A stretch of DNA of 64,000 bases from a virus: positions 1-64,000 of IMG/VR virus record IMGVR_UViG_3300025070_000019. One strand, written 5' to 3'. Positions 3,789-51,894 of this stretch are shown piece by piece. Within the stretch, counting starts at the first letter, position 1, and every line of letters begins with the position of its first letter. Under the pieces are notes generated by a model. The model saw nothing but the letters and a program-made list of their open reading frames with translations, was not told where the DNA came from and made no database searches. The position numbers and the translations under genes were made by a program.

Positions 3789-4856
3789 ATGTATATTAAC
3801 AATAATGTAGATGCTGTAATTGGTTTACAGTATGGTGATGAAGGTAAAGGTAAAATAACAGCTGGTGTTCTTAGTCAAGTAAATTATGATATAACAGCGC
3901 GATTTAATGGTGGACCAAATGCTGGTCATTCTATACATAAAGAGAATGGCGCACATTATGCATTACATCAATTACCATCCTCTGTCGTCTACGGACAAAG
4001 AGGACTTATTGGTCCAGGTTCTGCTGTTGACTTTCACAAACTAAATAAAGAAATTAAAGAAGTAAATGCTATAGAAGATTTAAATGTTAAAAATCTTTTG
4101 CATGTTGCTAGAAACATTTGCCCTATAAAAAATAGACATATTGAGGTTGACAGAAACTTTCATGCAGGAATGCAAGGCAGCACTTCATCTGGTATTGCTC
4201 CTGCTTATAGTGATTTTTACAACAGAACTAATGAAAGCAATAATCAGCAATACTTACCACCTCCATTAACAGTTGACAACATGTTACTTGAAGGTGCACA
4301 AGGTTTTTACCTTGATATTTATCATGGACAATACCCTTATGTAACAAGTAGTCACATATCTCCTGCATTTGCAGCAGCTAGTTTTGGATTTTCACCTAAG
4401 AAAATCCGCAACATTATTGGTGTTGCAAAATGCTATGAAACCAGATCAGGTAAAGATCCTTATTTTGATTACTTAATGGATGATATGGGGGTATTGAAAA
4501 AGCAAAAAGGTTTTAATTTTTCATTTGAAGACATTTATGAAGACATACAAAAAACAGGTCATGAATTTGGTGTAACTACAGGAAGAAAACGTCAGATACG
4601 TTTTCTTGATGTAAGTCGTTTGATTCACAGTATTAATGCTACTGGCACTACTCATGTAGTAATTAACAAATGGGACATTTTAGAAAAACTAGATGCTTGT
4701 TGTTACTTTTATAATACTAATTTATTTGTATGTGATAAAGAATCAATGTTTCCTGAAGTGGAAGCATTGATTTATGCTTATTGTAAAGATGTAAAAAAGG
4801 TATTTTATAGTGCATCTAAAACTAATGATATTGATTGGAAGTGGTTAAATGATTGA
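3789..4856 (+). CDS. purA: adenylosuccinate synthetase (short form)
   Basis: GLQYGDEGKGK, GGPNAGHS, LEGAQG, YPYVTSS, GVTTGRKR, NKWD. Confidence 0.95.
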   Translation: MYINNNVDAVIGLQYGDEGKGKITAGVLSQVNYDITARFNGGPNAGHSIHKENGAHYALHQLPSSVVYGQRGLIGPGSAVDFHKLNKEIKEVNAIEDLNVKNLLHVARNICPIKNRHIEVDRNFHAGMQGSTSSGIAPAYSDFYNRTNESNNQQYLPPPLTVDNMLLEGAQGFYLDIYHGQYPYVTSSHISPAFAAASFGFSPKKIRNIIGVAKCYETRSGKDPYFDYLMDDMGVLKKQKGFNFSFEDIYEDIQKTGHEFGVTTGRKRQIRFLDVSRLIHSINATGTTHVVINKWDILEKLDACCYFYNTNLFVCDKESMFPEVEALIYAYCKDVKKVFYSASKTNDIDWKWLND

Positions 4857-6676: not shown

Positions 6677-6774
6677 CATATAAACTATACATGTTAGATA
6701 TAAAAAGTACCTCCTTATGTGCGAGTGTTGCAAGTTGAGTTACCCCTGCCTTTTCTACTTAACTTGTAACATTT

Positions 6775-6848
6775 GGGCCTTTAGCTCAGTTGGTCAGAGC
6801 ACTCGTCTCATAAACGAGTCGTCCTGGGTTCAAGTCCCAGAAGGCCCA
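6775..6848 (+). tRNA. tRNA with CAT anticodon (tRNA-Ile2-like; Met not excluded), CCA not encoded
   Basis: Acceptor GGGCCTT/AAGGCCC, D arm GCTC/GAGC, anticodon arm CTCGT-CTCATAA-ACGAG, T arm CTGGG-TTCAAGT-CCCAG. Confidence 0.95.
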
Positions 6849-6867
6849 TTATTAAAAAGGATATACT

Positions 6868-7224: not shown

Positions 7225-7907
7225 TTCTCTCTCCACCATATAGTAATATCCTATTTTATAAAAACACTACACCTATATTAGGTACATATACGAAGAATAG
7301 AAGACCAGGTAGACAAAGAGTATTTACAACTTTAAGAAAAGCTAAAGACGGCTGGTATAATAAAAGTGGTTTAAAAAACCCTGGCATTGAAAACTTGATC
7401 TATCGTAAAAATGCAATTTATAGCATTGCATTGCTTAAAAATAATGACTGGCATTTAATAAGAGATGTTTTAGTTGAAAAAAACATCTCATCTATTGAAT
7501 TCAATGTAAGTTGTCCTAATCATCAAGTGCAACTTTTAAATCCTAGTATTATTTGTCAAGCTAAGTATTGTTTTGAAAATGTAATAATAAAAATGCCTCA
7601 TCAAACTAATCTTAGATTTATAGAAGATTATATAGAAGAAGGTATTAATATTGTACATATATCAAATACAAAACCTACTGATAAAGGGGCTTTGTCAGGC
7701 AAACAATTAGTTTATAATAATTTAAAACTAATTGAAAAATTAAAAGAAAAATATCCTTACATAAGGGTCATAGGAGGTGGAGGTATCTATGATATAGATA
7801 CCCTAAAAAGCTATGAATCTGCAGGTGCTGATCATTTTTCTTTATCAACTGTATTACTTACTCCAATCAAAACTAAAAACCTTATAAAGGAATATTATAA
7901 TGAATAA
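7155..7907 (+). CDS. pyrD: dihydroorotate dehydrogenase-like protein
   Basis: N.SGLKNPG, EFNVSCPN, SNT, GALSG, IGGGGI, AGAD. Confidence 0.85.
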   Translation: MQIFRQKENSMRQIQKRSSFNKIILSPPYSNILFYKNTTPILGTYTKNRRPGRQRVFTTLRKAKDGWYNKSGLKNPGIENLIYRKNAIYSIALLKNNDWHLIRDVLVEKNISSIEFNVSCPNHQVQLLNPSIICQAKYCFENVIIKMPHQTNLRFIEDYIEEGINIVHISNTKPTDKGALSGKQLVYNNLKLIEKLKEKYPYIRVIGGGGIYDIDTLKSYESAGADHFSLSTVLLTPIKTKNLIKEYYNE

Positions 7908-7940
7908 ATTGCGTTTAGACTTAGATAAGGCATAGCTTAT

Positions 7941-8195
7941 TTATTTAAATATTAATTTTGTTGGCAAAATTTCTATATGTTTATAACATGGACATATATC
8001 TGCATCTAGACCACATAAATTACATTTATTGTCATTAAAAACAACTTTAGTGAAATCTCTTGTTTCTTGAATGAAACAAGAGTCAGGTATAATGTAATAT
8101 TGATTTGAAACACCTTTATCTATTTTATTGTTAAACATAATGTTTTCCTGGTGAATGTAATGAGAAAAGATCAAACTAATAAACAATCTATACAA
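7941..8195 (-). CDS. hypothetical small Cys-containing protein (probable start near 8138)
   Basis: Fills gap between + genes; CNLC..CPC.KH. Confidence 0.4.
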   Translation of the reverse strand: MYRLFISLIFSHYIHQENIMFNNKIDKGVSNQYYIIPDSCFIQETRDFTKVVFNDNKCNLCGLDADICPCYKHIEILPTKLIFK

Positions 8196-8624
8196 GATAC
8201 TAAAGCAAAACGTGGTTGGTGGTTCTCTGTCATTTTTTTGCTAATAGTAGTAGGATTAATACTCTTTCTTACTTATGTAAAAATAGTAGATGAAAACAGA
8301 GATGTACTTGTAGGCATTTTAGGCATGATCACTGGATCTATTTCAAGTATGATGGCTATAGCTTCAGGTAGAGATCCTAGTGAGGTAGAAGAACTTAAGG
8401 ATAAACTTTCTGCTTCTGATGCAGATCGTGCTGCTTTAATTGCTAGATTACGTGACGCACAGATACAGTTGCAACTTAAAAACGAACAAGTTTTTGAGTT
8501 GCAAAATGCAGTAATCAACAAGCTTTCTGTTTTTCAAGGTCAACAACCTATAAAAACTTTAAATGAAAATCAAGTTGTTTTACATCCAGATGTAGCTACT
8601 TGGTTACCTGAAGAAAAAAAGTAA
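8151..8624 (+). CDS. 2-TM protein with C-terminal coiled coil
   Basis: Two hydrophobic helices then heptad-rich segment; 2 nt from cyclase gene. Confidence 0.75.
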   Translation: MNVMRKDQTNKQSIQDTKAKRGWWFSVIFLLIVVGLILFLTYVKIVDENRDVLVGILGMITGSISSMMAIASGRDPSEVEELKDKLSASDADRAALIARLRDAQIQLQLKNEQVFELQNAVINKLSVFQGQQPIKTLNENQVVLHPDVATWLPEEKK

Positions 8625-12228: not shown

Positions 12229-12942
12229 ATGATTATAAATTTATATGAAAACTCAGAATCACAAGGTTATGTAGAATTAATATCTCATATGGGCAAAGAC
12301 ATTGTTACGCCTGCTGGTGCTGCAAGAGCTTCTTTTGCTAAAGAAGTAACTGAAATTACTGAACGAGATATAAAACTTGTTAACTATTGTGCAAGAGAAA
12401 AACATTCATCTATATTTGAACATAATACTGTTACTTTTAAATTTAAAGTGCCTCTCTTTGTTGCACGTCAACATATGAGACATAGAACTTGGTCTTATAA
12501 TGAAGTTAGTCGCAGATACACTTCTATTGACATAAATTTCTATGAACCTAATTCTTTTCGTACTCAACATAAGAGTAACAGACAAGCTTCTAATGGAGAT
12601 GAAATAAACCCTATAGTCTCTCTTGTAAAGGGATCTACAGTATCATGGGATACAAAGGCATCAACAGCTATAGGAAATCACGTTAAAGACTCATTAAAGC
12701 TTTATAATCAATTATTAGACTCAGGTGTATGTAGAGAACAAGCTAGAATGATTTTACCCCAAAATATATATACAACATATTGGGGTACAGTTAATCTTAA
12801 TAATTTAGTTAAGTTCATACATTTAAGAGATCATGAAGGAGCACAACAAGAAATACAAGTTGTTGCTCAAGCATGTAAAGTTATTGTATATAACTTATGG
12901 CCTGAAACGGCTAAAGCATTATTTGAGGTGAATCATGGCTAA
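12229..12942 (+). CDS. thyX: FAD-dependent thymidylate synthase
   Basis: HSSIFEH, ARQHMRHRTWSYNEVSRRY, REQARMILP. Confidence 0.96.
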   Translation: MIINLYENSESQGYVELISHMGKDIVTPAGAARASFAKEVTEITERDIKLVNYCAREKHSSIFEHNTVTFKFKVPLFVARQHMRHRTWSYNEVSRRYTSIDINFYEPNSFRTQHKSNRQASNGDEINPIVSLVKGSTVSWDTKASTAIGNHVKDSLKLYNQLLDSGVCREQARMILPQNIYTTYWGTVNLNNLVKFIHLRDHEGAQQEIQVVAQACKVIVYNLWPETAKALFEVNHG

Positions 12943-13258
12943 TATGAATCTTTACATTGGTGAAGGTATTTTGTGTACTGATCCTAAAATCAGGTACACA
13001 AAAGATGATACTAAGGCTGTATGCAATTTTATTTTACTTGTAGAAAACAGCTATAAATCTAAAAAAAATAATGATATTCAATTTAAAAAAAGACAAGCTT
13101 ATATTCCAGTAGTTGCTTGGGATAATAAAGCAAAACTTATAGAAAAAGAATATCAAAAAGGTGACAAGATTAGAGTCATGGGTCGTATTACAACAGAAGT
13201 AAATTCTTTTGAAGTTGTTCTTGATGATATTTGCTTAATTAAAGGTTACTTAGCATAA
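12935..13258 (+). CDS. ssb: single-stranded DNA-binding protein (OB fold, no acidic tail)
   Basis: G.L.TDP.IRYT, VVAW..KA, KGD.I.V.GRI. Confidence 0.8.
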   Translation: MANMNLYIGEGILCTDPKIRYTKDDTKAVCNFILLVENSYKSKKNNDIQFKKRQAYIPVVAWDNKAKLIEKEYQKGDKIRVMGRITTEVNSFEVVLDDICLIKGYLA

Positions 13259-19311: not shown

Positions 19312-20403
19312 ATGCAATCTATTACAGAATTAAATATTTTAAACAAAAAACCTACCCTTTATATTTCATATGAAGGGTTAGAAGCAATTAAACACATTGT
19401 CTCTATTGCGCCACAAGAAGCACAATGGTTTCATACTATTGAAGTTGAAAACGAAAACACTTTAGTTTTATCAGATCGTATTTACATACCAGAACAAAAT
19501 ACATCTGCTGCTCAAGTTGATTCTACATCTGAAATGTTAATAAATTTTTATAAAGAATTATCTAAAGAATTTAAAACGGAAGAAGTAAATCACATATTAC
19601 AAAATATGGGATGTTGGTGTCATTCACATCATAACATGGGTGTAAGTCCATCAGGACAAGACGTAAAACAATTCACTGAATTTGTTAAAAGTTCTATTGA
19701 ACAAAATCAAAACACTTGGCAAATCATGTTGATCTTTAATAAAAAAGATCAATTTTATTGTCGAGCATATGATCCTAAAACAGGAATTATTTACGAAGGT
19801 TTAGATTTAGAAATTTATCATACTTATGATTTCGATTATATTGACAAAGCAGCTAAAACTAAATTTAAGAAACCTAAACCTAAATTTAATAGCTATGGAT
19901 TTAAATCTAAAAAGAATCAAACTAAAACTACTTACACTAGCCCTAATTGGTTATATCAATCTTCACAAGAATCATTGTTTCCAGCTACTGTTGATAGCAA
20001 TGGTTATGTGTATCCTTCGAAGATCAATGATTATGCAAATGAAGGTTATTATGATGAGTTAGCAGAACATATTTTAAGTGGGTTTAATCAAAAAACTATT
20101 AAGTTTAATCAAAACAATTTAGATGAATTAGTTTTTCAAATGCAAAATCATTTAGATGATAGAGAATTTTGTTTATTTAGCTATATGTTAGCTAATAATA
20201 AAAAAAGTCTAATTAGATCTTGGTCTTTAAATGAAGGTGATTTCAATATTTTACTTTTACAAGATGCTGAAGATAAATTAAGAACTTTTATGAAAAGCAA
20301 AACCAGAAGTAAAAGATCTCTTATCAGTAAAATGTCTACATTTTTAGACATTTTAGATTTAAAAAATGATGAAGCAATTAAAATAATAAAGGAGTTAAAT
20401 TAA
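19312..20403 (+). CDS. JAB/MPN+ (JAMM) metalloprotease
   Basis: N-terminal Glu (PQEAQW), WCHSHHNMGVSPSGQD = HxH-x7-S-xx-D. Confidence 0.88.
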   Translation: MQSITELNILNKKPTLYISYEGLEAIKHIVSIAPQEAQWFHTIEVENENTLVLSDRIYIPEQNTSAAQVDSTSEMLINFYKELSKEFKTEEVNHILQNMGCWCHSHHNMGVSPSGQDVKQFTEFVKSSIEQNQNTWQIMLIFNKKDQFYCRAYDPKTGIIYEGLDLEIYHTYDFDYIDKAAKTKFKKPKPKFNSYGFKSKKNQTKTTYTSPNWLYQSSQESLFPATVDSNGYVYPSKINDYANEGYYDELAEHILSGFNQKTIKFNQNNLDELVFQMQNHLDDREFCLFSYMLANNKKSLIRSWSLNEGDFNILLLQDAEDKLRTFMKSKTRSKRSLISKMSTFLDILDLKNDEAIKIIKELN

Positions 20404-21092
20404 TGACAGTATCATTTTTACGACATAATTCGTTTTTCGGACCTGAAGATACTGATCAAGCTGTACTTAACATAATTGGTGTTGGTGCAACAGGTTCTTG
20501 GGTTGGTTTATTAGCAGCTAAAATGGGTTGGCACCATTTTAGAGTTTGGGATCTAGACATTGTAGAATCTCATAATTTACCTAATCAGATATATGATTCC
20601 AAACATATAGGAATGAAAAAAGTTGATGCGTTTAAAGAAGTATTATTACGTTTTAATCCTCATTGTATTATTGAAACTAATGATTGTTTTTACACCAGTA
20701 ATACTTTTGCTTCTTCTATGGAAGGTGCAGTTTTTATTGCAGTCGATTCACTCAAAGCAAGAAAAGACATCATGACTGGTTTGAAATCAAATCCTATGGT
20801 GGATTTGATTCTTGAAACTAAAATGGGTTTTACACATGCTGAGATGAATTTTATTGACCCATTAGATGTAAATTTTATTGACAACTACTTATCTATGCTT
20901 AAAAATGATGACGAAGTAGAAGAAAGTGCTTGTAATGCACGTATCATTACTACACTTACTAATATTGTTAGTAGCACACTTGTTCATGAACTTTGTAACT
21001 TCTACAAAAAGTACAATTCAGAAGAAGATACTAAAAAATCTTTTAAAACTATTTTTAACATTGAAAACTGTTTATCAGTTTATCATACATAA
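20403..21092 (+). CDS. ThiF/MoeB/E1-like Ubl-activating enzyme
   Basis: IIGVGATGS, D.DIVESHNLPNQ, GMKKVDA, AVDS..AR, candidate catalytic Cys in ESACN. Confidence 0.92.
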   Translation: MTVSFLRHNSFFGPEDTDQAVLNIIGVGATGSWVGLLAAKMGWHHFRVWDLDIVESHNLPNQIYDSKHIGMKKVDAFKEVLLRFNPHCIIETNDCFYTSNTFASSMEGAVFIAVDSLKARKDIMTGLKSNPMVDLILETKMGFTHAEMNFIDPLDVNFIDNYLSMLKNDDEVEESACNARIITTLTNIVSSTLVHELCNFYKKYNSEEDTKKSFKTIFNIENCLSVYHT

Positions 21093-21106
21093 ATCTAAGG
21101 ATTATT

Positions 21107-21295
21107 ATGTCAAAAGAAAAATTACAATCTATTATTAATTTACTAACTTCATCTCTAGAAGATGCAACAAAGTTTGATGCAGGAAATGATGCTGCAGGTA
21201 AACGTATTCGTAAGGATTGTCAAGATGCTAAAGCACTTTTACAAGAACTTAGAGTTGAAGTACAAGAAGAAAGAAATAATCGAAAAGCTAAGTAG
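21107..21295 (+). CDS. histone H1-like Hc1 family protein
   Basis: DATKFDAGNDAAGKRIRK...L.ELR. Confidence 0.8.
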   Translation: MSKEKLQSIINLLTSSLEDATKFDAGNDAAGKRIRKDCQDAKALLQELRVEVQEERNNRKAK

Positions 21296-21321
21296 ATTAT
21301 TTCTAAACAAAAAACATTTTA

Positions 21322-21350
21322 AAAAGGGAGGCATTTAGCCTCCTTTTTTA
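21322..21350 (+). terminator. intrinsic terminator
   Basis: GGAGGC-attta-GCCTCC followed by T tract, preceded by A tract. Confidence 0.8.
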
Positions 21351-21365
21351 TTTTAAGGAGACTAA

Positions 21366-21656
21366 ATGTACATTTACCGTTTAATGCAAGGCGATACTAC
21401 TAAAGACGCTTTTTTAAAAATGTTAGCTAAAGAAAAAGAATGGTCAGAATATACTAATGAACCATCTTTATTTATTAAATATAAACGTTATCAAGTTTTA
21501 GATACTAATAAACATTTTGATAAAATGGAGGATGAAAATGTAATTCATAAATATTTAAAAGAAAAAAATTTATCTAAAAACTGCTGTGGAGTATTTGTAC
21601 TACATGGCAACCAATTTCAATTCCTATGTCCTGATGACATTGAATACGAATATTAA
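21366..21656 (+). CDS. hypothetical protein
   Basis: AAGGAG RBS. Confidence 0.7.
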   Translation: MYIYRLMQGDTTKDAFLKMLAKEKEWSEYTNEPSLFIKYKRYQVLDTNKHFDKMEDENVIHKYLKEKNLSKNCCGVFVLHGNQFQFLCPDDIEYEY

Positions 21657-21731
21657 CTTCGCTTAATTTTAAGCAAAATTTATTAAATAAACTGTATTTA
21701 CATACAAAAACAAAAAGAAGGAAAAAATCCT

Positions 21732-22238
21732 ATGGATATCACTCTTATCGTAATTCCTGGTCCTGGTGTTCGCACTGTAACTCTTAACGAAAATACAACT
21801 GTAGAGCAACTTGTTACGCAAGAAAATTTACATGGTCGTGACATCATTATTGATGGTGTTGGTGTTTCTCCTGCTAACTATCAAACAACTAACATTACTG
21901 CTAATAGCGAAGTATTTGCTACTGGTAGTGTGAAAGGGAATATGTCTAATTTAACTTTAATCGTAATTCCTGGTCCTGGTGTTCGCACTCTTAGTATCAC
22001 TAATAGTATGACTGTAGAACAACTTATTACGCAAGAAAATTTACATGGTCGTGATATTATTATTGACGGTGTTGGTATCTCACCAACTAATTATCAAACA
22101 ACTACATTAACTAGTGGTAGCGAAGTATTTGCTACTGGTAGTGTAAAAGGGAATGGTGATCGTCCTGCAAACGGTCCATCACAAACAGGTCGTCCTAGTG
22201 GTGGTGGACGCGGTAACAATCCACCTCGTGGAAAGTAA
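21732..22238 (+). CDS. tandem ubiquitin-like (beta-grasp) precursor: 2 x ~70 aa units + 27 aa tail
   Basis: Units 21732-21941 and 21942-22154 both end SEVFATGSVKGN; beta-beta-alpha-beta-beta pattern; near E1/JAB/E2. Confidence 0.8.
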   Translation: MDITLIVIPGPGVRTVTLNENTTVEQLVTQENLHGRDIIIDGVGVSPANYQTTNITANSEVFATGSVKGNMSNLTLIVIPGPGVRTLSITNSMTVEQLITQENLHGRDIIIDGVGISPTNYQTTTLTSGSEVFATGSVKGNGDRPANGPSQTGRPSGGGRGNNPPRGK

Positions 22239-22360: not shown

Positions 22361-22395
22361 TATAGTATCTTCTATTCTATACTAAAGGATTAGTT

Positions 22396-23298
22396 ATGAA
22401 AGATATATTCGAACCAGTAAAACTAACTGTTTCAGATTCATTTATTGATAACTTGTTTATTGAAAAAACAAACGAATTAAAAAGTATACATAAAAAGTTC
22501 CACTATGAAAGTGGGACTTTTTTAGTTTTACAAAGTGAAAAGAAAAAGAACAAGAAAGCATTAGCTTATGTAACTGTAGATGAATTAAAATTAATTGACC
22601 CTAAATTAGCATATGGTTCTATAAGTCCTAAAGACTCTAAACAACTTATGTTTGCCGCTGCTATGCAAGAAATAGATTTTAGTGTAATTGTTTGTTTTGG
22701 TGCTGCTGGAACAGGCAAAACTACATTAGCTATAGCAAAAGCAATACAAGATTATTTTACACATAAAAAGAAAATCTATTTAACAAAACCTACACATATG
22801 GTACAATCACATACGAATCAGGTGTTTGGACCTGTACCTGGCGATGTAGATGAAAAATATACACCATATATAAAGAGTTTTGAAATAGTATTGAAAAAGA
22901 TTTTAGGAAACGAAAGTAAACACTATTTAGATATGATGAAAAAACGAAAAGATCTTGAATTTGTACCTGTTGAATATACAAGAGGATGCACGTATGAAGA
23001 CTGTACTTTTATTATAGATGAAGTACAAAATATGACATGGCACGAATTAAAAACTACTATGAGTAGAATAGGTGAAAATAGTCAATTGTTACTATTAGGT
23101 GATTTAAATCAAATTGACGCAGATTTTGGTTTAAAAGATTCAGGAATATATCAATTAATAACTTCTCAAACTTTTGACGAATCAGATATTACTTCTACTA
23201 TAAAGCTTACTAAGCAATATAGAGGACCTATACCTGATTTAGTCTATCATGTAGATAAAGAACAGAAAGGAACTCATGAATTATCCAACGAGTTTTAA
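22396..23298 (+). CDS. phoH: PhoH family ATPase
   Basis: GAAGTGKT, GPVPGD..EK..PY, RG.T, IIDEVQN, SRIGE, GD..QID. Confidence 0.93.
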   Translation: MKDIFEPVKLTVSDSFIDNLFIEKTNELKSIHKKFHYESGTFLVLQSEKKKNKKALAYVTVDELKLIDPKLAYGSISPKDSKQLMFAAAMQEIDFSVIVCFGAAGTGKTTLAIAKAIQDYFTHKKKIYLTKPTHMVQSHTNQVFGPVPGDVDEKYTPYIKSFEIVLKKILGNESKHYLDMMKKRKDLEFVPVEYTRGCTYEDCTFIIDEVQNMTWHELKTTMSRIGENSQLLLLGDLNQIDADFGLKDSGIYQLITSQTFDESDITSTIKLTKQYRGPIPDLVYHVDKEQKGTHELSNEF

Positions 23299-23701
23299 TG
23301 TTTATAAAAAAACTGCAGCGGCTCAATTCACATTATTGATCCCACGCAGAGATGAAAATGGTCGTATACAAAAGCCAGGTGCCATTCTTTTAGAGATGGC
23401 ACCTTCTAAAGGTGACAAAGCATATGATTGGAATTCTAAAATTTATTTTGCGTTTGGTTTAAATGACTTAACGCAATTTTTTGACGACCCATACTCTGAT
23501 AAATGGGGTAGCTTTTTTCACAAAAATGGTGACACTAATAAAAAATTACAAATTAGTCATGGTGAAGGTCGTTATGAAGGAACATATACAATGAATCTTT
23601 ATTCTGGAGATCAACGTATTATGATTTCTTTAACAGGTGGTGAGTTTACTGTCTTAAGTAAATTATTTGCTAGTGCATTACCTAAGTTAATAGGTTGGTA
23701 A
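23276..23701 (+). CDS. Whirly-like ssDNA-binding protein
   Basis: VYKKTAA, G.ILLEMAP..G...YDW..K..F, FFH, EFTVL..LF..ALP.LIGW. Confidence 0.75.
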   Translation: MNYPTSFNVYKKTAAAQFTLLIPRRDENGRIQKPGAILLEMAPSKGDKAYDWNSKIYFAFGLNDLTQFFDDPYSDKWGSFFHKNGDTNKKLQISHGEGRYEGTYTMNLYSGDQRIMISLTGGEFTVLSKLFASALPKLIGW

Positions 23702-23702
23702 T

Positions 23703-23975
23703 GTGTTTCAAATAAGAACAAAAGACAATAAACTTCTCACAGTTTCTAAGGAACAAGCATTTGAAGAGATATTAGAAGCAGCAATGAAACAAAACGAAAA
23801 TAAAAAACTTGAGTCTTTAGATGAATTTATTGAAATTGTTTTTGCTAAATTAAAATCTCATATGCTTGATGCGAATAATAAACAATTATATGGGATTTAT
23901 TTTTTAGCTGGTTATTATTATCGTATCTTTTTAGAGAAAAATAATGTCGAAATTAGTAAAGAAAAATCAAATTAA
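23703..23975 (+). CDS. hypothetical protein
   Basis: ORF in operon. Confidence 0.55.
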   Translation: MFQIRTKDNKLLTVSKEQAFEEILEAAMKQNENKKLESLDEFIEIVFAKLKSHMLDANNKQLYGIYFLAGYYYRIFLEKNNVEISKEKSN

Positions 23976-24085: not shown

Positions 24086-24520
24086 ATGTTTAATTACTCA
24101 TTTAATATTCGTCGCTTAAATAGTGGATCAGCACTTAAAGCATTCGTTACACTCATCATTGATGATGTAATGTCTATTGAAGGATTTAAAATTGTCAATG
24201 GTAGAAATGGACTGTTTGTTTCTGTACCCTCTCATAAAGGCACTGTAACTGAAGAAGGACAACAAGTTGAAAAGTATTTTGATGATGTTCGTTTTCTAGG
24301 AGACAATGGCATTGAAGTTGGCAATGAAATTAAAAACGCTATGCTTGATGCTTATAATAATCAAAGCAGTTCTTCCTCCCAACAAGGTGGTCAAACTTGG
24401 GGTAGTAAAGCAAATAGCAGCCAGCAAAGAGCTGACTCTGCACAAGCTAATACTCAAGCTATGAGTAAACCTGCTAACAAGAACAAAGGTAAAAGACGTG
24501 CTCTTTGGGATGATACATGA
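24086..24520 (+). CDS. spoVG: SpoVG family nucleic-acid-binding protein
   Basis: LKAFVTLIIDD...I.GFKIVNGRNGLFVSVPS.K...YFD; low-complexity C-terminal tail. Confidence 0.88.
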   Translation: MFNYSFNIRRLNSGSALKAFVTLIIDDVMSIEGFKIVNGRNGLFVSVPSHKGTVTEEGQQVEKYFDDVRFLGDNGIEVGNEIKNAMLDAYNNQSSSSSQQGGQTWGSKANSSQQRADSAQANTQAMSKPANKNKGKRRALWDDT

Positions 24521-25059
24521 AAGAAATTCATGTAGAAAAAGTTGCTGCAGATGACGTATTAGACCCTTTAAAAGAAGGTGCAGAACTCTATACTAACTTG
24601 ACTGAAAATTTTATTAGTGAATTTGTTTTTTATGATAAAACTTTATATGACTGGGCAACAGATTTAATGATCAAGATACCTTCTAATAGAGATCTTGATC
24701 TTGTGTCTTTTCGTGAATGTTTGTTAAAGTTAAGTAAAAATATACAGATTGCATCCAATTATTATTCATTAGCTAGCAGTATGGTAGATGCTATTGGTGG
24801 TGGCAACAGTATTAAAAAAAGTGATTTAATTAATATTATTGTCAATAATTATCAAGTTAAAGGTGCTAAACGTCCTGCTGCAAGTGTCATCGAATCAATG
24901 GCAGAATCTTATTTATCAAATACTACTAGTGCAGAAAAAGCAGCTAAAATTGTAAAATCTTTTTGGAAACAAAGACTTGATACACTTTTAGATCTACGTA
25001 AAGTGTTTGAGCAAATAGGTATGTCATTATCTGTAGAAATTAAATTTACTTCAACATAA
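24517..25059 (+). CDS. hypothetical helical protein
   Basis: ATGA-coupled ORF. Confidence 0.65.
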   Translation: MKEIHVEKVAADDVLDPLKEGAELYTNLTENFISEFVFYDKTLYDWATDLMIKIPSNRDLDLVSFRECLLKLSKNIQIASNYYSLASSMVDAIGGGNSIKKSDLINIIVNNYQVKGAKRPAASVIESMAESYLSNTTSAEKAAKIVKSFWKQRLDTLLDLRKVFEQIGMSLSVEIKFTST

Positions 25060-31883: not shown

Positions 31884-32129
31884 ATGATTATAAAAAGAAA
31901 ATGTATTATTACAGGTAAATCCAATCAACTTGATTTACCTGTAACTCAAACTCAATTAGATCGCTGGAAAGCAGGTTTACCAATTCAAGATGCAATGCCT
32001 CATTTAAATAATGATGAAAGAGAATTCATTATTACAGGCATTACGAAAGAAACTTGGGATCAGTATCTAAAAACAGAAAAAACAAAAGAAATTGTTAATG
32101 GGATTTTAAATCCAGAAAGAAATGATTGA
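31884..32129 (+). CDS. phage hypothetical protein
   Basis: AAGGA RBS; IQDAMPHL...EREFIITGI. Confidence 0.65.
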   Translation: MIIKRKCIITGKSNQLDLPVTQTQLDRWKAGLPIQDAMPHLNNDEREFIITGITKETWDQYLKTEKTKEIVNGILNPERND

Positions 32130-33136
32130 TGCCAGCTAAAAAAATCACAGGCATTGCTGAAATTGATTTAGTAATGAATGCCTTTTCCAAAAAATTTGGC
32201 AAAGAAAATATGATTTCAATGGGACCAAAGTATGAAAAAGTGGAACCAGTTTCTACCGGTTCTATTAGTTTGGATTCAACACTTGGTGTAGGCGGATTAC
32301 CTAACGATAGAGTTATTGAAATTTATGGACCTCCTAGTGCAGGTAAAACTAGCCTTTGTCTACAAATTGTAAGGCAATATGTAAATAAATATGGTTATGA
32401 AAGACCACCCGTCTATATAGACCTAGAACGTACAACTGGTTTAGATCTTGTTACATCGATGGGTCTAGATGCCAATCAAATGATTTTCTGTTACCCTGAT
32501 ACTGCAGAAGAAGCATTACAACTTTGCCAAGATCTTGGAAAGACTGGCAAAGTAGGAGTTGTTATCTTCGATAGTATTGATGCTGCTCAAAGTGAAAAAG
32601 ATACTAAACGCCTTATGAATGAAACAGGTGTTGGTGATTTACCTAGACTACTATCAAAAGCTTTACGAGCTATTAGTAAAATTAGTGTAGATAATCAATG
32701 TATGTATTTATTTATTAATCAAGTACGTATAAACATTGGTGTCATGTATGGAAATCCAGAGACAACTTCTGGTGGTAATGCTATACCGTTTTATTCTTCT
32801 GTAAGATTACGTGTCAGTAGTAAACCAAGTTCAGACCAACCTAACAGCATTAACATGAAAGTTAAAATTGTTAAAAATAAAGTAGCTCCTGCTCTTAATA
32901 AAGTAGCTGAGTTTACATTTTTATGTGGTCAAGGTACTGATAAATACCTTGACCTTATCGGTTGTGCTAAAGACATGGGGTTACTTCGTTTTGCTGGTTC
33001 TACTGTTAAATGTTTTAATGGAGATACAGGAGAAGAAGAAAGTATTTGCACAGGTGGCAAACTTGGTGCTAAACAATACTTTATGGAAAATCAAGATGCA
33101 TATGAAAGTCTTAAACAACTTTGTTTAACAAATTAG
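32126..33136 (+). CDS. recA: RecA recombinase
   Basis: STGSISLD..LG.GGLP, EIYGPPSAGKTS, FINQVR..IGVMYGNPETTSGGNA..FYSSVRL, KNKVAP. Confidence 0.96.
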   Translation: MMPAKKITGIAEIDLVMNAFSKKFGKENMISMGPKYEKVEPVSTGSISLDSTLGVGGLPNDRVIEIYGPPSAGKTSLCLQIVRQYVNKYGYERPPVYIDLERTTGLDLVTSMGLDANQMIFCYPDTAEEALQLCQDLGKTGKVGVVIFDSIDAAQSEKDTKRLMNETGVGDLPRLLSKALRAISKISVDNQCMYLFINQVRINIGVMYGNPETTSGGNAIPFYSSVRLRVSSKPSSDQPNSINMKVKIVKNKVAPALNKVAEFTFLCGQGTDKYLDLIGCAKDMGLLRFAGSTVKCFNGDTGEEESICTGGKLGAKQYFMENQDAYESLKQLCLTN

Positions 33137-33143
33137 GAGTAAT

Positions 33144-33410
33144 ATGAAAGCTTTAATAGTTGATACACCATATACAGAATCATTTAAAGGCAAATTCGAT
33201 AAAATACAAGATAAAGTTTATGATATTTTGCATTTGCTACCATATAATCAAGATGATGTAGAATTTTTATCTTATTTGGCTGATAACTTCTTAGAAGGTT
33301 TAGAAGATTATTATAAAGAGAATGTTTTTAAGTGTAAATGTTGTGAAAGGTTAGCTGTTAAAGGTAACATATGTTCTGACAACTATGAAAAGGATTGTAA
33401 AAGACAATGA
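33144..33410 (+). CDS. hypothetical protein with C-terminal Cys cluster
   Basis: AGGAG RBS. Confidence 0.55.
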   Translation: MKALIVDTPYTESFKGKFDKIQDKVYDILHLLPYNQDDVEFLSYLADNFLEGLEDYYKENVFKCKCCERLAVKGNICSDNYEKDCKRQ

Positions 33411-34675
33411 GTGGAGAGTATGTACACTTACATGTACATACCGAGTATAGTTTATTAGATGGTATAAATAAGGTTAATAGATTACCACATATTATAAAAG
33501 AGATGAATCAACCTGCATTAGCTATGACAGATCATGGCAATGTATCTGGTTCATTTAAGTTTTATAAAGAGTGTAATAAAGCAGGCGTTAAACCTATTAT
33601 AGGTATGGAAGCTTATTATACTGTAAATGATAGAACTGCTAGAGAAAAAGATGAATTAGAAAAATCCTATTATCATCTTATTTTGCTGGCTCAAAATAAT
33701 ATTGGTCTAAAAAATCTTATAAAACTATCTTCTTACGCTTATACAGAAGGTATGTACAGGAAACCACGTATTGATGATGCATTAATTGCTCAATACTCTG
33801 ATGGTATAATTGCAACGACTACTTGTTTAGGTGGTCGTGCATCTCAATTAATTATTAATGGCCGAGAAAAAGAAGCTGAAAATTTAATACATCATCATAA
33901 AGCAATGTTTAAAAATAGATTTTTAGTTGAATTACAATTACATAAAGACAAAGATCAACAACTAGTTAATAATGTATTACAAAGAATTGCATTAGATAAT
34001 GACTTACCTATGGTTCTTACAAATGACTGCCACTACACGCATGAGCATGATAAGTGTCATCATGAGGCAGCTTTATGTTTGCAAACAAAAACAACTCTTA
34101 GTAATGAGAAACGTTTTACTTTTGGTGAAATAGATGTACATGTAGCACATCATGACTGGATGTGGAAACATGCAGAAGCTCAAGGAATGCCTTATGATGT
34201 TATTAGTAATAGTGTTGCTGTTGCTGATTTAATTGATAGCGATTCATATTTTATGGATAGAATGAATCGTTATCCTAAGTATCAAGAGCTACCTGAAGAT
34301 ATGACTTCTATTGATTATCTGAATGTAGAAGCTCAACATGGATTGTATAGGAGGTTTAAAGAGTTGCCTCCAGAAGATTATAGAAAACGTTTAGCCTATG
34401 AGCTGAAAGTAATTAAAAGAATGGGTTTTGCTGATTATCTTTTGATTGTTGCACAATTTATGAATGGCGCAAAAGAAAGAGGTGTTTTGCATGGCCCCGG
34501 TCGTGGCTCTGCTGCAGGTTCTCTTATTGCTTGGGCACTTGGTATTACTGAAGTGGATCCAATTAAATATGGATTAGTTTTCGAACGTTTTTTAAATGAA
34601 GGTCGTGGTGCTACACCACTTATATTCAATAAACAAATGGCTTTAATAGCTGATCAAAATGGTTTACCATTTTAA
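33407..34675 (+). CDS. dnaE: DNA polymerase III alpha, fragment 1 (PHP domain + start of palm)
   Basis: HLHVHTEYSLLDG, TDHG, KPIIGMEAY, NDCHY, GPGRGSAAGS, FERFLN. Confidence 0.93.
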   Translation: MSGEYVHLHVHTEYSLLDGINKVNRLPHIIKEMNQPALAMTDHGNVSGSFKFYKECNKAGVKPIIGMEAYYTVNDRTAREKDELEKSYYHLILLAQNNIGLKNLIKLSSYAYTEGMYRKPRIDDALIAQYSDGIIATTTCLGGRASQLIINGREKEAENLIHHHKAMFKNRFLVELQLHKDKDQQLVNNVLQRIALDNDLPMVLTNDCHYTHEHDKCHHEAALCLQTKTTLSNEKRFTFGEIDVHVAHHDWMWKHAEAQGMPYDVISNSVAVADLIDSDSYFMDRMNRYPKYQELPEDMTSIDYLNVEAQHGLYRRFKELPPEDYRKRLAYELKVIKRMGFADYLLIVAQFMNGAKERGVLHGPGRGSAAGSLIAWALGITEVDPIKYGLVFERFLNEGRGATPLIFNKQMALIADQNGLPF

Positions 34676-35498: not shown

Positions 35499-37091
35499 AT
35501 GTATGACAGTAGAAAAAATAATTTAAAACTCTTAGATGAGAATATAATAGATGAAAGATACGATCAAGTCGATCCCGATTATTTAGCTTTTGAAGTTAAA
35601 ATGGTATCAGATGAAGATTTAGAAAGAATTTTCTGGTTGTTAACTGAAAAAGTTAAATTTGAATCGAATCCATACAATTCTATCTTGCTTTATATTACAG
35701 GGATTACAGATGACTTTAATTTTGATAAAGCTAGATCTGAAATGGTTGGTGGTGCTCCACCTGACATTGACATTGACCATGATGCTTTAGACAGAGAAGA
35801 AGCGATTCAATGGTGTGTTGATTACTGGGGTAGAGAAAATGTAGCTAATATTATTACTCATGGTACTTTTAAACCTAAAAGTTTAGCGCGGTCTTTTTAT
35901 CGTATTACTGAAGGCAATAATGAAGACCTTAACGAGTTACTTAAAAAGATACCTATGCCTGTATATGGTAAAGAAGCTACATTAGATGAAATACTTGAAG
36001 TTGCACCTGAAATAAAAGAAGAAATACGATATGCAAACTTTTTGGAGTTTGCAGATCGTATTGAAGGTATGGTTTCTACATTTGGTATTCATGCTGCTGG
36101 TATTATTATATCTGACACTGAAGTTAATGATACTGTTCCTGTATGGAAAAATAGCAAGGCAGATCGTATTACTCAATATGATAAAGATGAATGTGAAGAA
36201 CTTGGTTTGATTAAGTTTGACTTCTTAGGTATAGACACATTGTCTATTATTAAAGAATGCCGTCATTTAATTAAACATCATACTTTATTAGATATAGAAC
36301 CATATGCAATTGAAGATGGAGATGAAAGAACTTATCAGACACTTTGTAGTGGCTTGCTTACTGGCGTCTTTCAAATGGAAACATCTGGTACTGCTAAAAA
36401 ACTAATACTTAGTATTCGTCCTAAATCAATAGAAGATTTATCTGCTATATCAGCTTTGAATCGTCCAGGTCCGTTACAAGCAGGACTAGATAAACAATAT
36501 ATAGAGAACAAATATAAGGGCTCTCCTCCAAAAGATTTACCTAGTAATGTTGCTGAAGTATTACAAGCTAGTTACTGGACTTTAGTTTATCAAGAACAAG
36601 TAATGGATATATGTTCTAAAATTGCAGGATTCACTCCTAAACAAGCTGATGATATTCGTCGTGCTATGGGTAAAAAGAAACATGAAGTATTAGAAAAATA
36701 TAAAGAACAATTCATTGAAGGTTGTCAATCAATTGGTGGTCTTGCCAAAGATTATTCAAGTAATCTTTGGGATGATCTTGTCGGTTTTGCAGACTATTGT
36801 TTATTAGGTAATACTAAGATTCAAACTGTAGATGGTACTTTCACAATAAAAGACATAGTTGATAACTTTATTTCAGCAGAAGTATTTAGTTATAGTTTTA
36901 AAGATAAAAATTTTATTAAACAAAAAGTATCTCAATGGTATAATCGTGGTGTCAAGCCAGTATATCGTTACACGTTAGAAGATGGTACTTATGTCGATTG
37001 TACAGAAGATCATAAGTTTTTAACAATAAATGATGATATGCTTGAAATTGATGCTATATTTGATAAAAATATAAAATTAAAGACTAAATAA
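35499..37091 (+). CDS. dnaE: DNA polymerase III alpha, fragment 2 (palm/thumb/fingers) fused to N-terminal split-intein half
   Basis: PDIDID, GIHAAG, KFDFLG, GVFQME, ALNRPGP, YQEQVM, IRRAMGKK, FADY|CL. Confidence 0.95.
   Translation: MYDSRKNNLKLLDENIIDERYDQVDPDYLAFEVKMVSDEDLERIFWLLTEKVKFESNPYNSILLYITGITDDFNFDKARSEMVGGAPPDIDIDHDALDREEAIQWCVDYWGRENVANIITHGTFKPKSLARSFYRITEGNNEDLNELLKKIPMPVYGKEATLDEILEVAPEIKEEIRYANFLEFADRIEGMVSTFGIHAAGIIISDTEVNDTVPVWKNSKADRITQYDKDECEELGLIKFDFLGIDTLSIIKECRHLIKHHTLLDIEPYAIEDGDERTYQTLCSGLLTGVFQMETSGTAKKLILSIRPKSIEDLSAISALNRPGPLQAGLDKQYIENKYKGSPPKDLPSNVAEVLQASYWTLVYQEQVMDICSKIAGFTPKQADDIRRAMGKKKHEVLEKYKEQFIEGCQSIGGLAKDYSSNLWDDLVGFADYCLLGNTKIQTVDGTFTIKDIVDNFISAEVFSYSFKDKNFIKQKVSQWYNRGVKPVYRYTLEDGTYVDCTEDHKFLTINDDMLEIDAIFDKNIKLKTK
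36798..37088 (+). mobile_element. split intein N-half (IntN, 97 aa)
   Basis: CLLGNTKIQT block A; QWYNRG..PVYRYTLEDG...CTEDHKFLT block B; ends at stop codon. Confidence 0.93.
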
Positions 37092-50597: not shown

Positions 50598-50627
50598 AAA
50601 GCGTCTTAATTGACGCTTTTGTTTTTT
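50598..50627 (+). terminator. intrinsic terminator after structural cassette
   Basis: AAAGCGTC-ttaatt-GACGCTTT followed by T-rich run. Confidence 0.7.
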
Positions 50628-50640
50628 GAGGTATGTAAAA

Positions 50641-50754
50641 ATGAAAATTGTAAAAAAAGAATTTCTTGGTAACCAAGAAGTTTACGATATCGGTGTGTCT
50701 TCTAACGAAGATGCACATAACTTTTTGCTAGATAATAACTTGATAGCAAGTAAT
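50641..50754 (+). mobile_element. split intein C-half (IntC, 38 aa)
   Basis: MKIVKKEFLGNQEVYDIGV...HNFLLDNNLIASN followed by +1 Cys. Confidence 0.93.
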
Positions 50755-51894
50755 TGTTTTAACAAAGCGCATTCAGTTAGCTATTCTATGTTAACTTATA
50801 TTAGTGCTTATCTAAAAACTCACTACCCTGTTTACTTTTTTACTGCTTTGATGTCTACTCGATCTAAAACTTTACAACCTAAATCATGGGCTGTTAAAGC
50901 TCCTGAATATGTATTGGAAGCAAAAAAATTTAATATAGATATAAATACTCCTAGTGTTAATAAATCAGGTTATGAATTTACTATCTTTAATAATGAAGTA
51001 TACTTTGGGTTAAATGCTATAAGAGACGTAGGTAAAACAGCAGCTAAAAGTATTATCAAAGCGAGAAAGAATGTCCCATTTAAAGACATTCTTGATTTTG
51101 TCGAACGTGTTAACTTGCAAAAAGTAAATACTAAAACTTTTGAAGCATTAGCCTATGCAGGTGCTTTTGATAGAATGGGTTACTCTCGTAAAGAGCTTAT
51201 AGAAAAAACTTCTGAAATATATTCCTATATAAGAGATTTAGAAGATTATCGACAACGTAAAATAGATGCAGCTGCTAGACGAGAAAAAAATGCTCGCAAT
51301 ACACCTTTAATAGAAAGACGTAACTTTTTACGTAAAGAAATAAAAAAAATAAACAATCGTATCAATAAGGATAAAGCTAAAGAAGAAGACTTTGAGAATT
51401 TGACTGTGTATGAAAATGAACTAGAACCTTTAGAAGACTTAGGACTTAAGAAACTAGTTGATCTTAAAGAAAAAGAAAGACCTGTTTTTCCTGAGTTAAA
51501 ACGCAATAGTTCTGTTGAGTTAGATCTTCAGGATATAACTCAACAAGCACACTACATTGGCTGTTACTTAGGTGGACACCCTTTGCAATTTGTACAAGTA
51601 AGTGGTGTTTCTCAAATTATTTCATTAGATATCGGTGAAATTGATACAATAGCTGGTGTAATATTAGGCATTCGTGAGATTACTACTCGTAAAGGCAAAA
51701 AAATGGCTGTTATAGATGTAAACGACTCAACGAATACTACTGAAATAGTTTGTTTTCCTTCAACATGGTCTAAGATAAATAATATGAATTTAAAAACTGG
51801 TGATATAGTTAAAGCTAAAATCAAAGTAGAAGAGACAGATCCAGACTATAAAATGATATTATTCAGCTTAACTACTGTTGATCAAAATCAATAA
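50641..51894 (+). CDS. dnaE: split-intein C-half fused to DNA polymerase III alpha fragment 3 (HhH + OB)
   Basis: ATG at 50641 after GAGGT; ASN|CFNKAHS.SY, YLKTHYP, PSVNKS, FGLNAIRDVG, AGAFD, YL.GHPL, T.KGKKMA. Confidence 0.94.
   Translation: MKIVKKEFLGNQEVYDIGVSSNEDAHNFLLDNNLIASNCFNKAHSVSYSMLTYISAYLKTHYPVYFFTALMSTRSKTLQPKSWAVKAPEYVLEAKKFNIDINTPSVNKSGYEFTIFNNEVYFGLNAIRDVGKTAAKSIIKARKNVPFKDILDFVERVNLQKVNTKTFEALAYAGAFDRMGYSRKELIEKTSEIYSYIRDLEDYRQRKIDAAARREKNARNTPLIERRNFLRKEIKKINNRINKDKAKEEDFENLTVYENELEPLEDLGLKKLVDLKEKERPVFPELKRNSSVELDLQDITQQAHYIGCYLGGHPLQFVQVSGVSQIISLDIGEIDTIAGVILGIREITTRKGKKMAVIDVNDSTNTTEIVCFPSTWSKINNMNLKTGDIVKAKIKVEETDPDYKMILFSLTTVDQNQ

Follow-up and report, generated by a model that had tools for sequence, protein, structure and literature searches.

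We analysed a stretch of 64,000 nucleotides (in the following, the window), which is the first 64 kb of the 96.6-kb virus record IMGVR_UViG_3300025070_000019 of IMG/VR (estimated completeness 59%), and could show that the gene at position 23276–23701 codes for a genuine Whirly-family protein (PF08536) that consists of the bare domain. Whirlies are treated as a plant invention for organelle genome stability; the window and its relatives contradict this view. In large uncultured phages this domain, signature residues and fold included, is common and much more diverse, and purifying selection keeps it there within a fixed module of genes.

The Whirly-family protein

The list of open reading frames (ORFs) of the window contains an ATG-initiated ORF at precisely this position on the plus strand. 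The gene and its elements are as follows:

23276–23701, plus strand: Whirly-family gene, 141 amino acids, 16.0 kDa, isoelectric point (pI) 9.05; ATG at 23276, stop codon at 23699–23701
23266–23271, plus strand: Shine–Dalgarno-like AAAGGA, read from the sequence, 4 nucleotides 5′ of the Whirly ATG and within the 3′ end of the PhoH gene
23303–23320, plus strand: codons of Y10-K11-K12-T13-A14-A15, counterpart of plant YKGKAA(L); K11 is retained, the second lysine (K67 of StWhy2) is threonine
23423–23440, plus strand: codons of Y50-D51-W52-N-S-K55; W52 and K55 show little or no variation in either phage or eukaryotic Whirlies
23519–23521, plus strand: codon of H82 in the FFH motif, invariant family-wide
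23636–23698, plus strand: codons of the C-terminal helix 121–138 and the terminal GW, along with helix 62–70 the main predicted tetramer interface

The first 23 nucleotides of the gene lie within the 3′ end of the upstream PhoH-like gene and the next ORF, o90, begins 1 nucleotide past the stop codon. Thus, the gene is packed in a string of co-oriented genes.

In a Pfam-A search the sole match of the protein is PF08536 (E-value 3.4e-12) with a score of 46.8 bits against a curated gathering cut-off of 23 bits, a similarity that chance does not explain; the match spans positions 1–135 of the 136 profile positions, and a six-frame search of the genome with this profile gave 45.7 bits. The same Pfam-A search yielded no match of the ORF to PF00436, the domain of the OB-fold single-stranded DNA-binding proteins (SSB), and PHROGs holds no family containing the protein. 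When all PDB sequences were searched with phmmer, plant Whirlies were the only matches (AtWHY1/2/3, StWhy2, and p24/PBF-2; E-values 3e-10 to 5e-8), with alignments extending through the last residue of the phage protein. An earlier reading made from the DNA letters only (the sequence-only reading) had taken the gene for a phage homologue of plant Whirlies, quoting the peptides VYKKTAAAQF, GAILLEMAPSKGDKAYDWNSKIYFAF, FFH, and ISLTGGEFTVLSKLFASALPKLIGW and setting them against plant motifs. All four peptides are present in the translation of 23276–23701 and the plant motifs it gave are correct: in HMMER alignments with AtWHY3/WHY1 and StWhy2 the plant motifs LLQFAP..G.RQYDW..K..F, FFHDP, and EFAVL...F...LP.L[IM]GW are collinear with the phage protein over the domain, and the same collinearity is found with Canna WHY1. 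The Pfam search that it had proposed, together with the fold and the predicted tetramer described below, bears out the homology.

A chance ORF or a pseudogene was rejected in view of the PF08536 match, the conserved synteny in relatives, and the low ratio of nonsynonymous to synonymous substitutions (dN/dS). The pairwise dN/dS of the gene is 0.09–0.38 among orthologues (dS >1.1); the gene is under purifying selection and is maintained. The Shine–Dalgarno-like site and the close packing with both neighbours likewise speak for a real gene.

The AlphaFold2 (AF2) model, built on an alignment of 90 sequences, has a pLDDT (predicted local distance difference test) score of 95.4, a predicted template modelling (pTM) score of 0.87, and the order β4-α-β4-α. 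Strands are predicted at residues 7–60, a helix at 62–68, strands at 79–119, and a helix at 121–138, and the chain ends at the C-terminal GW of the family. In a Foldseek search plant Whirlies rank top (4KOO, 4KOP, 4KOQ, 3N1H, 3R9Z, and 1L3A; query-normalised template modelling (TM) score 0.80–0.87, root mean square deviation 2.4–3.1 Å, identity 22–28%), whereas the next fold class, PUR-alpha and MRP1/2, reaches a TM of only 0.4–0.6.

Four copies of the chain are predicted to form a homotetramer with a score of 0.94, compared to 0.06 for the best of three controls. Among proteins of solved structure, 20 of the 30 one-chain pairs and 1 of the 23 single chains reach the mark applied; with an own alignment and four copies in use, these counts are only approximate here. 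At least 96% of the contacts are shared between the runs, the partner pLDDT is at least 90, and the predicted interface comprises residues 62–71 and 120–141, that is, the two helices. As plant Whirly tetramers have already been solved, this pass may reflect likeness to these structures more than independent evidence. The protein is most likely a homotetramer of four blades joined by the two helices; the predicted assembly is of the same C4 type as in the plant Whirlies, with which a comparison had been proposed.

All signature residues of the Whirlies are present (K11, Y50, D51, W52, K55, H82, E123, and G140-W141). Common to the phage and eukaryotic clades are Y10, K11, A15, G35, A42, G46, Y50, D51, W52, and K55 and further F58, H82, K89, L91, E123, and G140. 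The column of the second KGKAAL lysine holds T13 in the window's protein and K in 34, S in 26, and T in 14 of the 130 non-eukaryotic rows. In StWhy2 this lysine, K67, is needed for the higher-order assembly of 24-mers (PMC3245945). Green algae and Marchantia likewise do not have KGKAAL (PMC9070903) and thus the second lysine is a trait of higher plants and not of the family.

The phage and the conserved gene module

The window stems from a large, AT-rich, uncultured marine tailed phage. Its G+C content is 25–34%, and near-identical or related DNA is found in marine, seawater, and estuary metagenomes of 16 studies. As no GenBank phage record exceeds ∼42% identity to its DNA polymerase, the phage belongs to an uncultured lineage; the low G+C content and a weak nucleotide similarity of the ribonucleotide reductase (RNR) gene to pelagiphages are only hints as to the host. 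The window codes for a PurZ-like enzyme, thymidylate synthase, an endolysin, both RNR subunits (alpha and beta), a UvsX-like recombinase, a DNA polymerase in three ORFs, an Mre11-type phosphoesterase, a Cas4-type exonuclease, and a primase–helicase. Searches of the phage genome gave no homologue of gp32 and no match to the UvsY family PF11056. The genes that matter for the Whirly protein are:

12935–13258, plus strand: OB-fold SSB gene, 107 amino acids, no acidic C-terminal tail; PF00436, 52.7 bits against a cut-off of 26
22396–23298, plus strand: PhoH-like ATPase gene, the conserved upstream neighbour; PF02562, 123.6 bits; phrog_170
23703–23975, plus strand: o90, 90 amino acids, no family; downstream neighbour in 15 of 16 related loci
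24086–24520, plus strand: SpoVG-like gene; PF04026, 42.4 bits; SpoVG domain, S/Q/A/T-rich linker, C-terminal tip R-[KR]-P-L-W
24517–25059, plus strand: o180, predicted all-helical, no family; best-conserved gene of the module
32126–33136, plus strand: UvsX/RecA-like recombinase gene, 8.4 kb downstream of the Whirly gene and proposed functional partner; phrog_97, E-value 8.9e-57

The OB-fold SSB is also encoded in the related locus L003, and the UvsX-like gene is kept in the relatives whose loci extend that far. In three of these the UvsX-like gene matches in two pieces ∼0.3–0.9 kb apart (L008 16920–18859, L009 17224–18506, and L010 15415–16697), which suggests an intron, an intein, or another insert. 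The three ORFs of the DNA polymerase (phrog_405; 33407–34675, 35499–37091, and 50626–51894) match consecutive parts of the profile, and ∼13.5 kb including an ORF of 1341 amino acids lie between parts two and three. The PurZ-like enzyme (3789–4856) matches phrog_1211, ‘2-aminooxy adenylosuccinate synthetase’, with an E-value of 3.8e-56, and judged from this match the genome may contain a modified base (2-aminoadenine). A single tRNA-Met gene (CAT) is located at 6774–6849.

Searching IMG/VR for the window's clade yielded 12 related loci and another query added four. All 16 have kept the core PhoH-Whirly-SpoVG-o180 down to a Whirly identity of 35%. In most relatives this module is flanked by ThiF, ubiquitin-like repeats, o90, o81, RNR, and UvsX. 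The protein o180 is 58–77% identical in 13 related loci, 37% in L013, and 31% in L018, which belongs to another lineage; its AF2 model is all-helical with a pLDDT of 77. An assignment of o180 to UvsY (Atlas: 13% of one cluster set) was not confirmed: there is no Pfam match even at an E-value of 10 and no PDB profile match, T4 UvsY appears in Foldseek only at rank 28 (E-value 1.3), and VIA-align found merely generic helical matches with Z up to 8.2.

The linker of the SpoVG-like protein is S/Q/A/T-rich, of low complexity, and variable in length. Its C-terminal tip R-[KR]-P-[LI]-W(-[GDE]-[YF]) is conserved in 12 of 13 relatives, the copy of the window reading RRALWDDT. The tip resembles the recruiting tail of the SSB type, a tail that the OB-fold SSB of the phage does not have. 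Upstream of the module, the region 20403–22238 contains a ThiF/E1-like gene (PF00899, 69 bits) followed by a small ORF and an ORF of 168 amino acids, which consists of two tandem repeats of ∼70 amino acids (LTLIVIPGPGVRT...ATGSVKGN) and a G/R/P-rich tail. Relatives have about two to six such ubiquitin-like repeats distributed over one to three ORFs, and the 168 amino acid ORF looks like a poly-ubiquitin-like gene beside an E1 gene in a phage.

Contigs of one seawater metatranscriptome library tile the positions 22370–23962 and bridge both gene junctions of PhoH-Whirly-o90. As DNA carry-over is possible in such an RNA library, and uncovered stretches are uninformative, this tiling is a weak hint of co-transcription of the three genes. 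A scan for sigma-70 promoters gave 57 hits where 56.9 were expected, no more than chance, and delimits no transcription unit.

Function of the phage Whirly protein

We suggest, with a probability of roughly 0.55, that the Whirly protein is an accessory single-stranded DNA (ssDNA)-binding tetramer which takes part in recombination-dependent replication or repair together with the UvsX-like protein of the phage. We assign it an accessory role in recombination or repair because the phage has an OB-fold SSB, a UvsX/RecA-like recombinase, an Mre11-type phosphoesterase, a Cas4-type exonuclease, and a primase–helicase. As the OB-fold SSB is present, the Whirly protein is not the only ssDNA-binding protein of the phage and probably not the main one. 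By analogy to StWhy2, the tetramer would most likely bind ssDNA without sequence preference on its β-sheet blades. It could cover strands that have been resected or displaced, impede the annealing of short repeats, and aid the recombinase in completing strand exchange, as has been reported for plant Whirlies acting together with organellar RecAs. Tetramers of StWhy2 have ssDNA-binding activity and guard against DNA damage, and in plants the binding of Whirly tetramers to ssDNA is non-specific and curbs error-prone repair (PMC3245945; PMC7549692). Moreover, plant Whirlies, and not the canonical mitochondrial SSBs, are reported in a 2026 preprint to potentiate strand exchange by organellar RecA (bioRxiv 10.64898/2026.10.24.761589). 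The sequence-only reading had placed the protein in replication or recombination, which is plausible given the UvsX-like protein, the polymerase, and the nucleases of the window, and which we likewise infer.

In other phage lineages the neighbours of Whirly are an RNase H with a Pol A 3′–5′ exonuclease, a Top1 zinc ribbon protein, an Mre11-type phosphoesterase, an RlaP-type nucleotidyltransferase, a reverse transcriptase, or RNR. A few kb downstream of Whirly, such lineages also have genes of AAA-family ATPases that hold inteins with LAGLIDADG or HNH (L017 11008–14943; L020 10470–13025).

Several points weigh against a role in recombination. The ssDNA-binding role of phage Whirlies in general is something that we infer. 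The conserved immediate neighbours PhoH and SpoVG belong to families that are tied to RNA at least as much as to DNA, and the recombinase gene lies 8.4 kb off and is not adjacent to Whirly. The identity of o180 as UvsY was not confirmed. In addition, proteins with a Whirly fold can prefer RNA, for example, ChmC of the Chimalliviridae, and plant WHY1 has been linked to RNA of intron-containing genes.

The main rival explanation is accordingly that the protein acts mainly on RNA, as an mRNA-binding or RNA-chaperone factor together with the PhoH-like ATPase and the SpoVG-like protein and comparable to ChmC or MRP1/2. Such a role would fit the tight PhoH-Whirly-SpoVG core conserved in all 16 related loci, the association of plant WHIRLIES with RNA from intron-containing genes, and the properties of ChmC, a Whirly-fold homotetramer with tighter binding to RNA than to DNA (58 vs 184 nM) that is required for infection. 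Like ChmC, the SpoVG-like neighbour carries a disordered tail, and the metatranscriptome contigs over PhoH-Whirly-o90 fit this role as they fit any other. However, in both sequence and structure the protein is near to the ssDNA-binding plant Whirlies (TM 0.80–0.87) and far from the RNA-binding MRP1/2 (TM 0.5–0.6), a search of BFVD returned no well-scoring ChmC-like protein, and the other phage lineages put Whirly beside genes of DNA replication and repair. We therefore regard a role mainly on RNA as rather unlikely.

We hold it to be quite improbable that the protein is an abundant architectural or regulatory DNA binder, which would compact or coat the DNA of the phage or its host, or would serve as a transcription factor. 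It is true that barley WHIRLY1 compacts nucleoids and has been likened to HU and Dps, that p24/PBF-2 was first described as a transcriptional regulator acting at promoters, that the protein is basic (pI 9.05), and that its gene stands among early or nucleotide-metabolism genes. Yet the 24-mer assembly of StWhy2 depends on the very lysine that is threonine here, the functions of plant Whirlies as transcription factors involve nuclear partners absent here, and no target element or repeat was recognised, although no search aimed at such elements was made. Finally, the Whirly protein might be the main replicative SSB of the phage in place of an OB-fold SSB or gp32. The presence of an ssDNA-binding fold where the phage brings its own replisome and lacks a gp32 homologue could be read in this way, but the canonical OB-fold SSB at 12935–13258, which is also found in L003, makes it very improbable; the missing acidic tail of that SSB still leaves room for a division of labour between the two proteins.

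Diversity of the family and comparison with known systems

An exhaustive phmmer search of 1.84 billion representative sequences with E-values up to 1e-3 yielded 202 clusters at 50% identity, most of them with 140–170 amino acids. The named members among the longer clusters are Viridiplantae (Acetabularia, Caulerpa, Canna, Rumex, and Aegilops). Two unrooted trees were calculated, one with 146 rows and a careful one with 84 rows. In both, the Viridiplantae form one clade together with unnamed, mostly N-terminally extended sequences (SH-aLRT 96 with 146 rows; 100/98 with 84 rows). A split supported with 99/92, for which the bootstrap is not fully settled, joins this eukaryotic clade with 11 short sequences including L023 from a 136-kb IMG/VR contig; the other 57 rows of the 84-row tree, among them the protein of the window, are found on the opposite side. 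IMG/VR contigs of 49–189 kb anchor at least five separate Whirly clades. The search with alignment A3 gave no IMG/VR locus, and L023, which was retrieved with alignment A4, belongs to the clade of A3. A search with the profile of the eukaryotic clade listed, among its best 120 matches, only land-plant WHY1.

In 50,697 GenBank/INPHARED phage records tblastn found nothing for the window's protein or for the representatives of two other clades; cultured phages that carry a Whirly are not known from this collection. Among 185,579 prokaryotic species genomes Whirly matches are found on only three contigs of metagenome-assembled genomes (MAGs), two from Thermoplasmata (one contig looks virus-like, the other match lies on a 3-kb contig) and one from a deltaproteobacterial symbiont, while a first scan of genome contigs with patterns of the window's clade gave no match. 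In the symbiont, the MAG of Olavius algarvensis Delta 3, the Whirly gene (PF08536, 52 bits) is located at 7851–8354 of a 146-kb contig with 53% G+C (L035), between a major facilitator superfamily (MFS) transporter and an NHL-repeat protein of 1812 amino acids. This setting looks cellular rather than phage-like.

Thus, of the viral or bacterial reservoir that the sequence-only reading had proposed, the viral part stands: the family has a large viral reservoir, with some 200 clusters and at least five clades anchored by IMG/VR contigs, and the bacterial side comes down to the one cellular-looking copy. The phylogeny with plant, algal, and prokaryotic sequences that it had called for recovers the plant and green-algal clade and places the copy of the window away from it. 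Because the tree has no root, it gives no direction of transfer; the data are compatible with eukaryotes nested in the phage diversity. The suggested link to phage-derived organellar machinery was not borne out, since the tree cannot be rooted and the window's copy is not in the lineage nearest to the plant clade.

Tentatively, one may think of Whirly as an old and diverse family of accessory ssDNA binders of phages, from which, or from a prokaryotic copy, the ancestor of the green plants acquired the single copy that gave rise to their clade; this scenario is possible, although we would not call it probable. If it is true, Whirly would join the T7-like RNA polymerase, Twinkle, and the Pol I-like polymerases as a further component of the organellar DNA machinery that came from phages, and the cooperation of organellar Whirly and RecA would be inherited from the cooperation with phage recombinases. 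The origin of the plant Whirly family becomes a testable phylogenetic question.

That the family is generally described as one of plants and green algae is correct for the literature, although one phage protein, A0A6J5NR37, has been named ‘Whirly transcription factor’ automatically in GenBank and UniProt. Reviews and an October 2026 preprint still call Whirly plant-specific or plant-unique (PMC9070903; bioRxiv 10.64898/2026.10.24.761589). Our literature search found no paper on sequence-level Whirly homologues in viruses and none that discusses A0A6J5NR37; where the literature speaks of phage ‘Whirly’, it means proteins related at the level of the fold, for instance ChmC and the Shedu and Menshen sensor domains. 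The copy of the window is one instance of a family which databases have already flagged automatically.

When compared with the plant Whirlies (AtWHY1/2/3, 4KOO/4KOP/4KOQ; StWhy2, 3N1H; PBF-2 p24, 1L3A), the phage protein belongs to the same Pfam family, has the same fold, and is predicted to assemble into the same C4-type tetramer via helices. It shares with them the first lysine of KGKAAL, YDW..K, FFH, the glutamate of the last helix, and the terminal GW, but is just 22–28% identical and has threonine in place of the second lysine of KGKAAL. Plant Whirlies carry an N-terminal organelle-targeting peptide and a C-terminal extension, whereas in the phage protein the domain begins at residue 7–9 and the chain terminates at GW. 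In addition, the phage copy adjoins PhoH and SpoVG and in the tree stands outside the eukaryotic clade and not adjacent to it.

Among the closest known proteins is A0A6J5NR37 (CAB4160126.1, ‘Whirly transcription factor [uncultured Caudovirales phage]’), a protein of 141 amino acids encoded on a 164-kb contig, which is ∼44% identical to the window's protein with a TM of 0.96; the fold search of BFVD gave no other close match. It belongs to the same large clade of short Whirlies and to a different phage lineage, and its name is an automatic transfer from Pfam. ChmC (gp61 of PhiPA3) from the nucleus-forming jumbo phages is, like the window's protein, a phage-encoded Whirly-fold homotetramer, as far as the prediction for the latter goes, and ChmC binds single-stranded nucleic acid. 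According to its description ChmC is set apart by a β3-α repeat, a long disordered tail rich in N/G and S/D/E, and its preference for RNA, whereas the window's protein has β4-α repeats and no tail and, judged from its plant relatives, would bind ssDNA. Moreover, the sequence of ChmC shows no detectable resemblance to known proteins, whereas the window's protein is a Whirly at the sequence level. PUR-alpha, the trypanosome MRP1/2, and the sPC4L/Whirly sensor domains of Shedu and Menshen are single-stranded nucleic acid binders of the same broad PC4-like/Whirly fold class; their relation is at the level of the fold only (TM 0.4–0.6, 8–14% identity) and they belong to other Pfam families.

The canonical ssDNA-handling set of phages, OB-fold SSB or gp32, UvsX, and UvsY, is unrelated in fold to Whirly. 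Of this set the window phage has the OB-fold SSB and the UvsX-like protein, no UvsY being detected, and the handling of ssDNA for the recombinase that we propose for Whirly would overlap with the task of these proteins. Small and tail-less natural Whirlies that come with their cognate SSB and recombinase could serve as models for what a Whirly tetramer adds beyond an OB-fold SSB.

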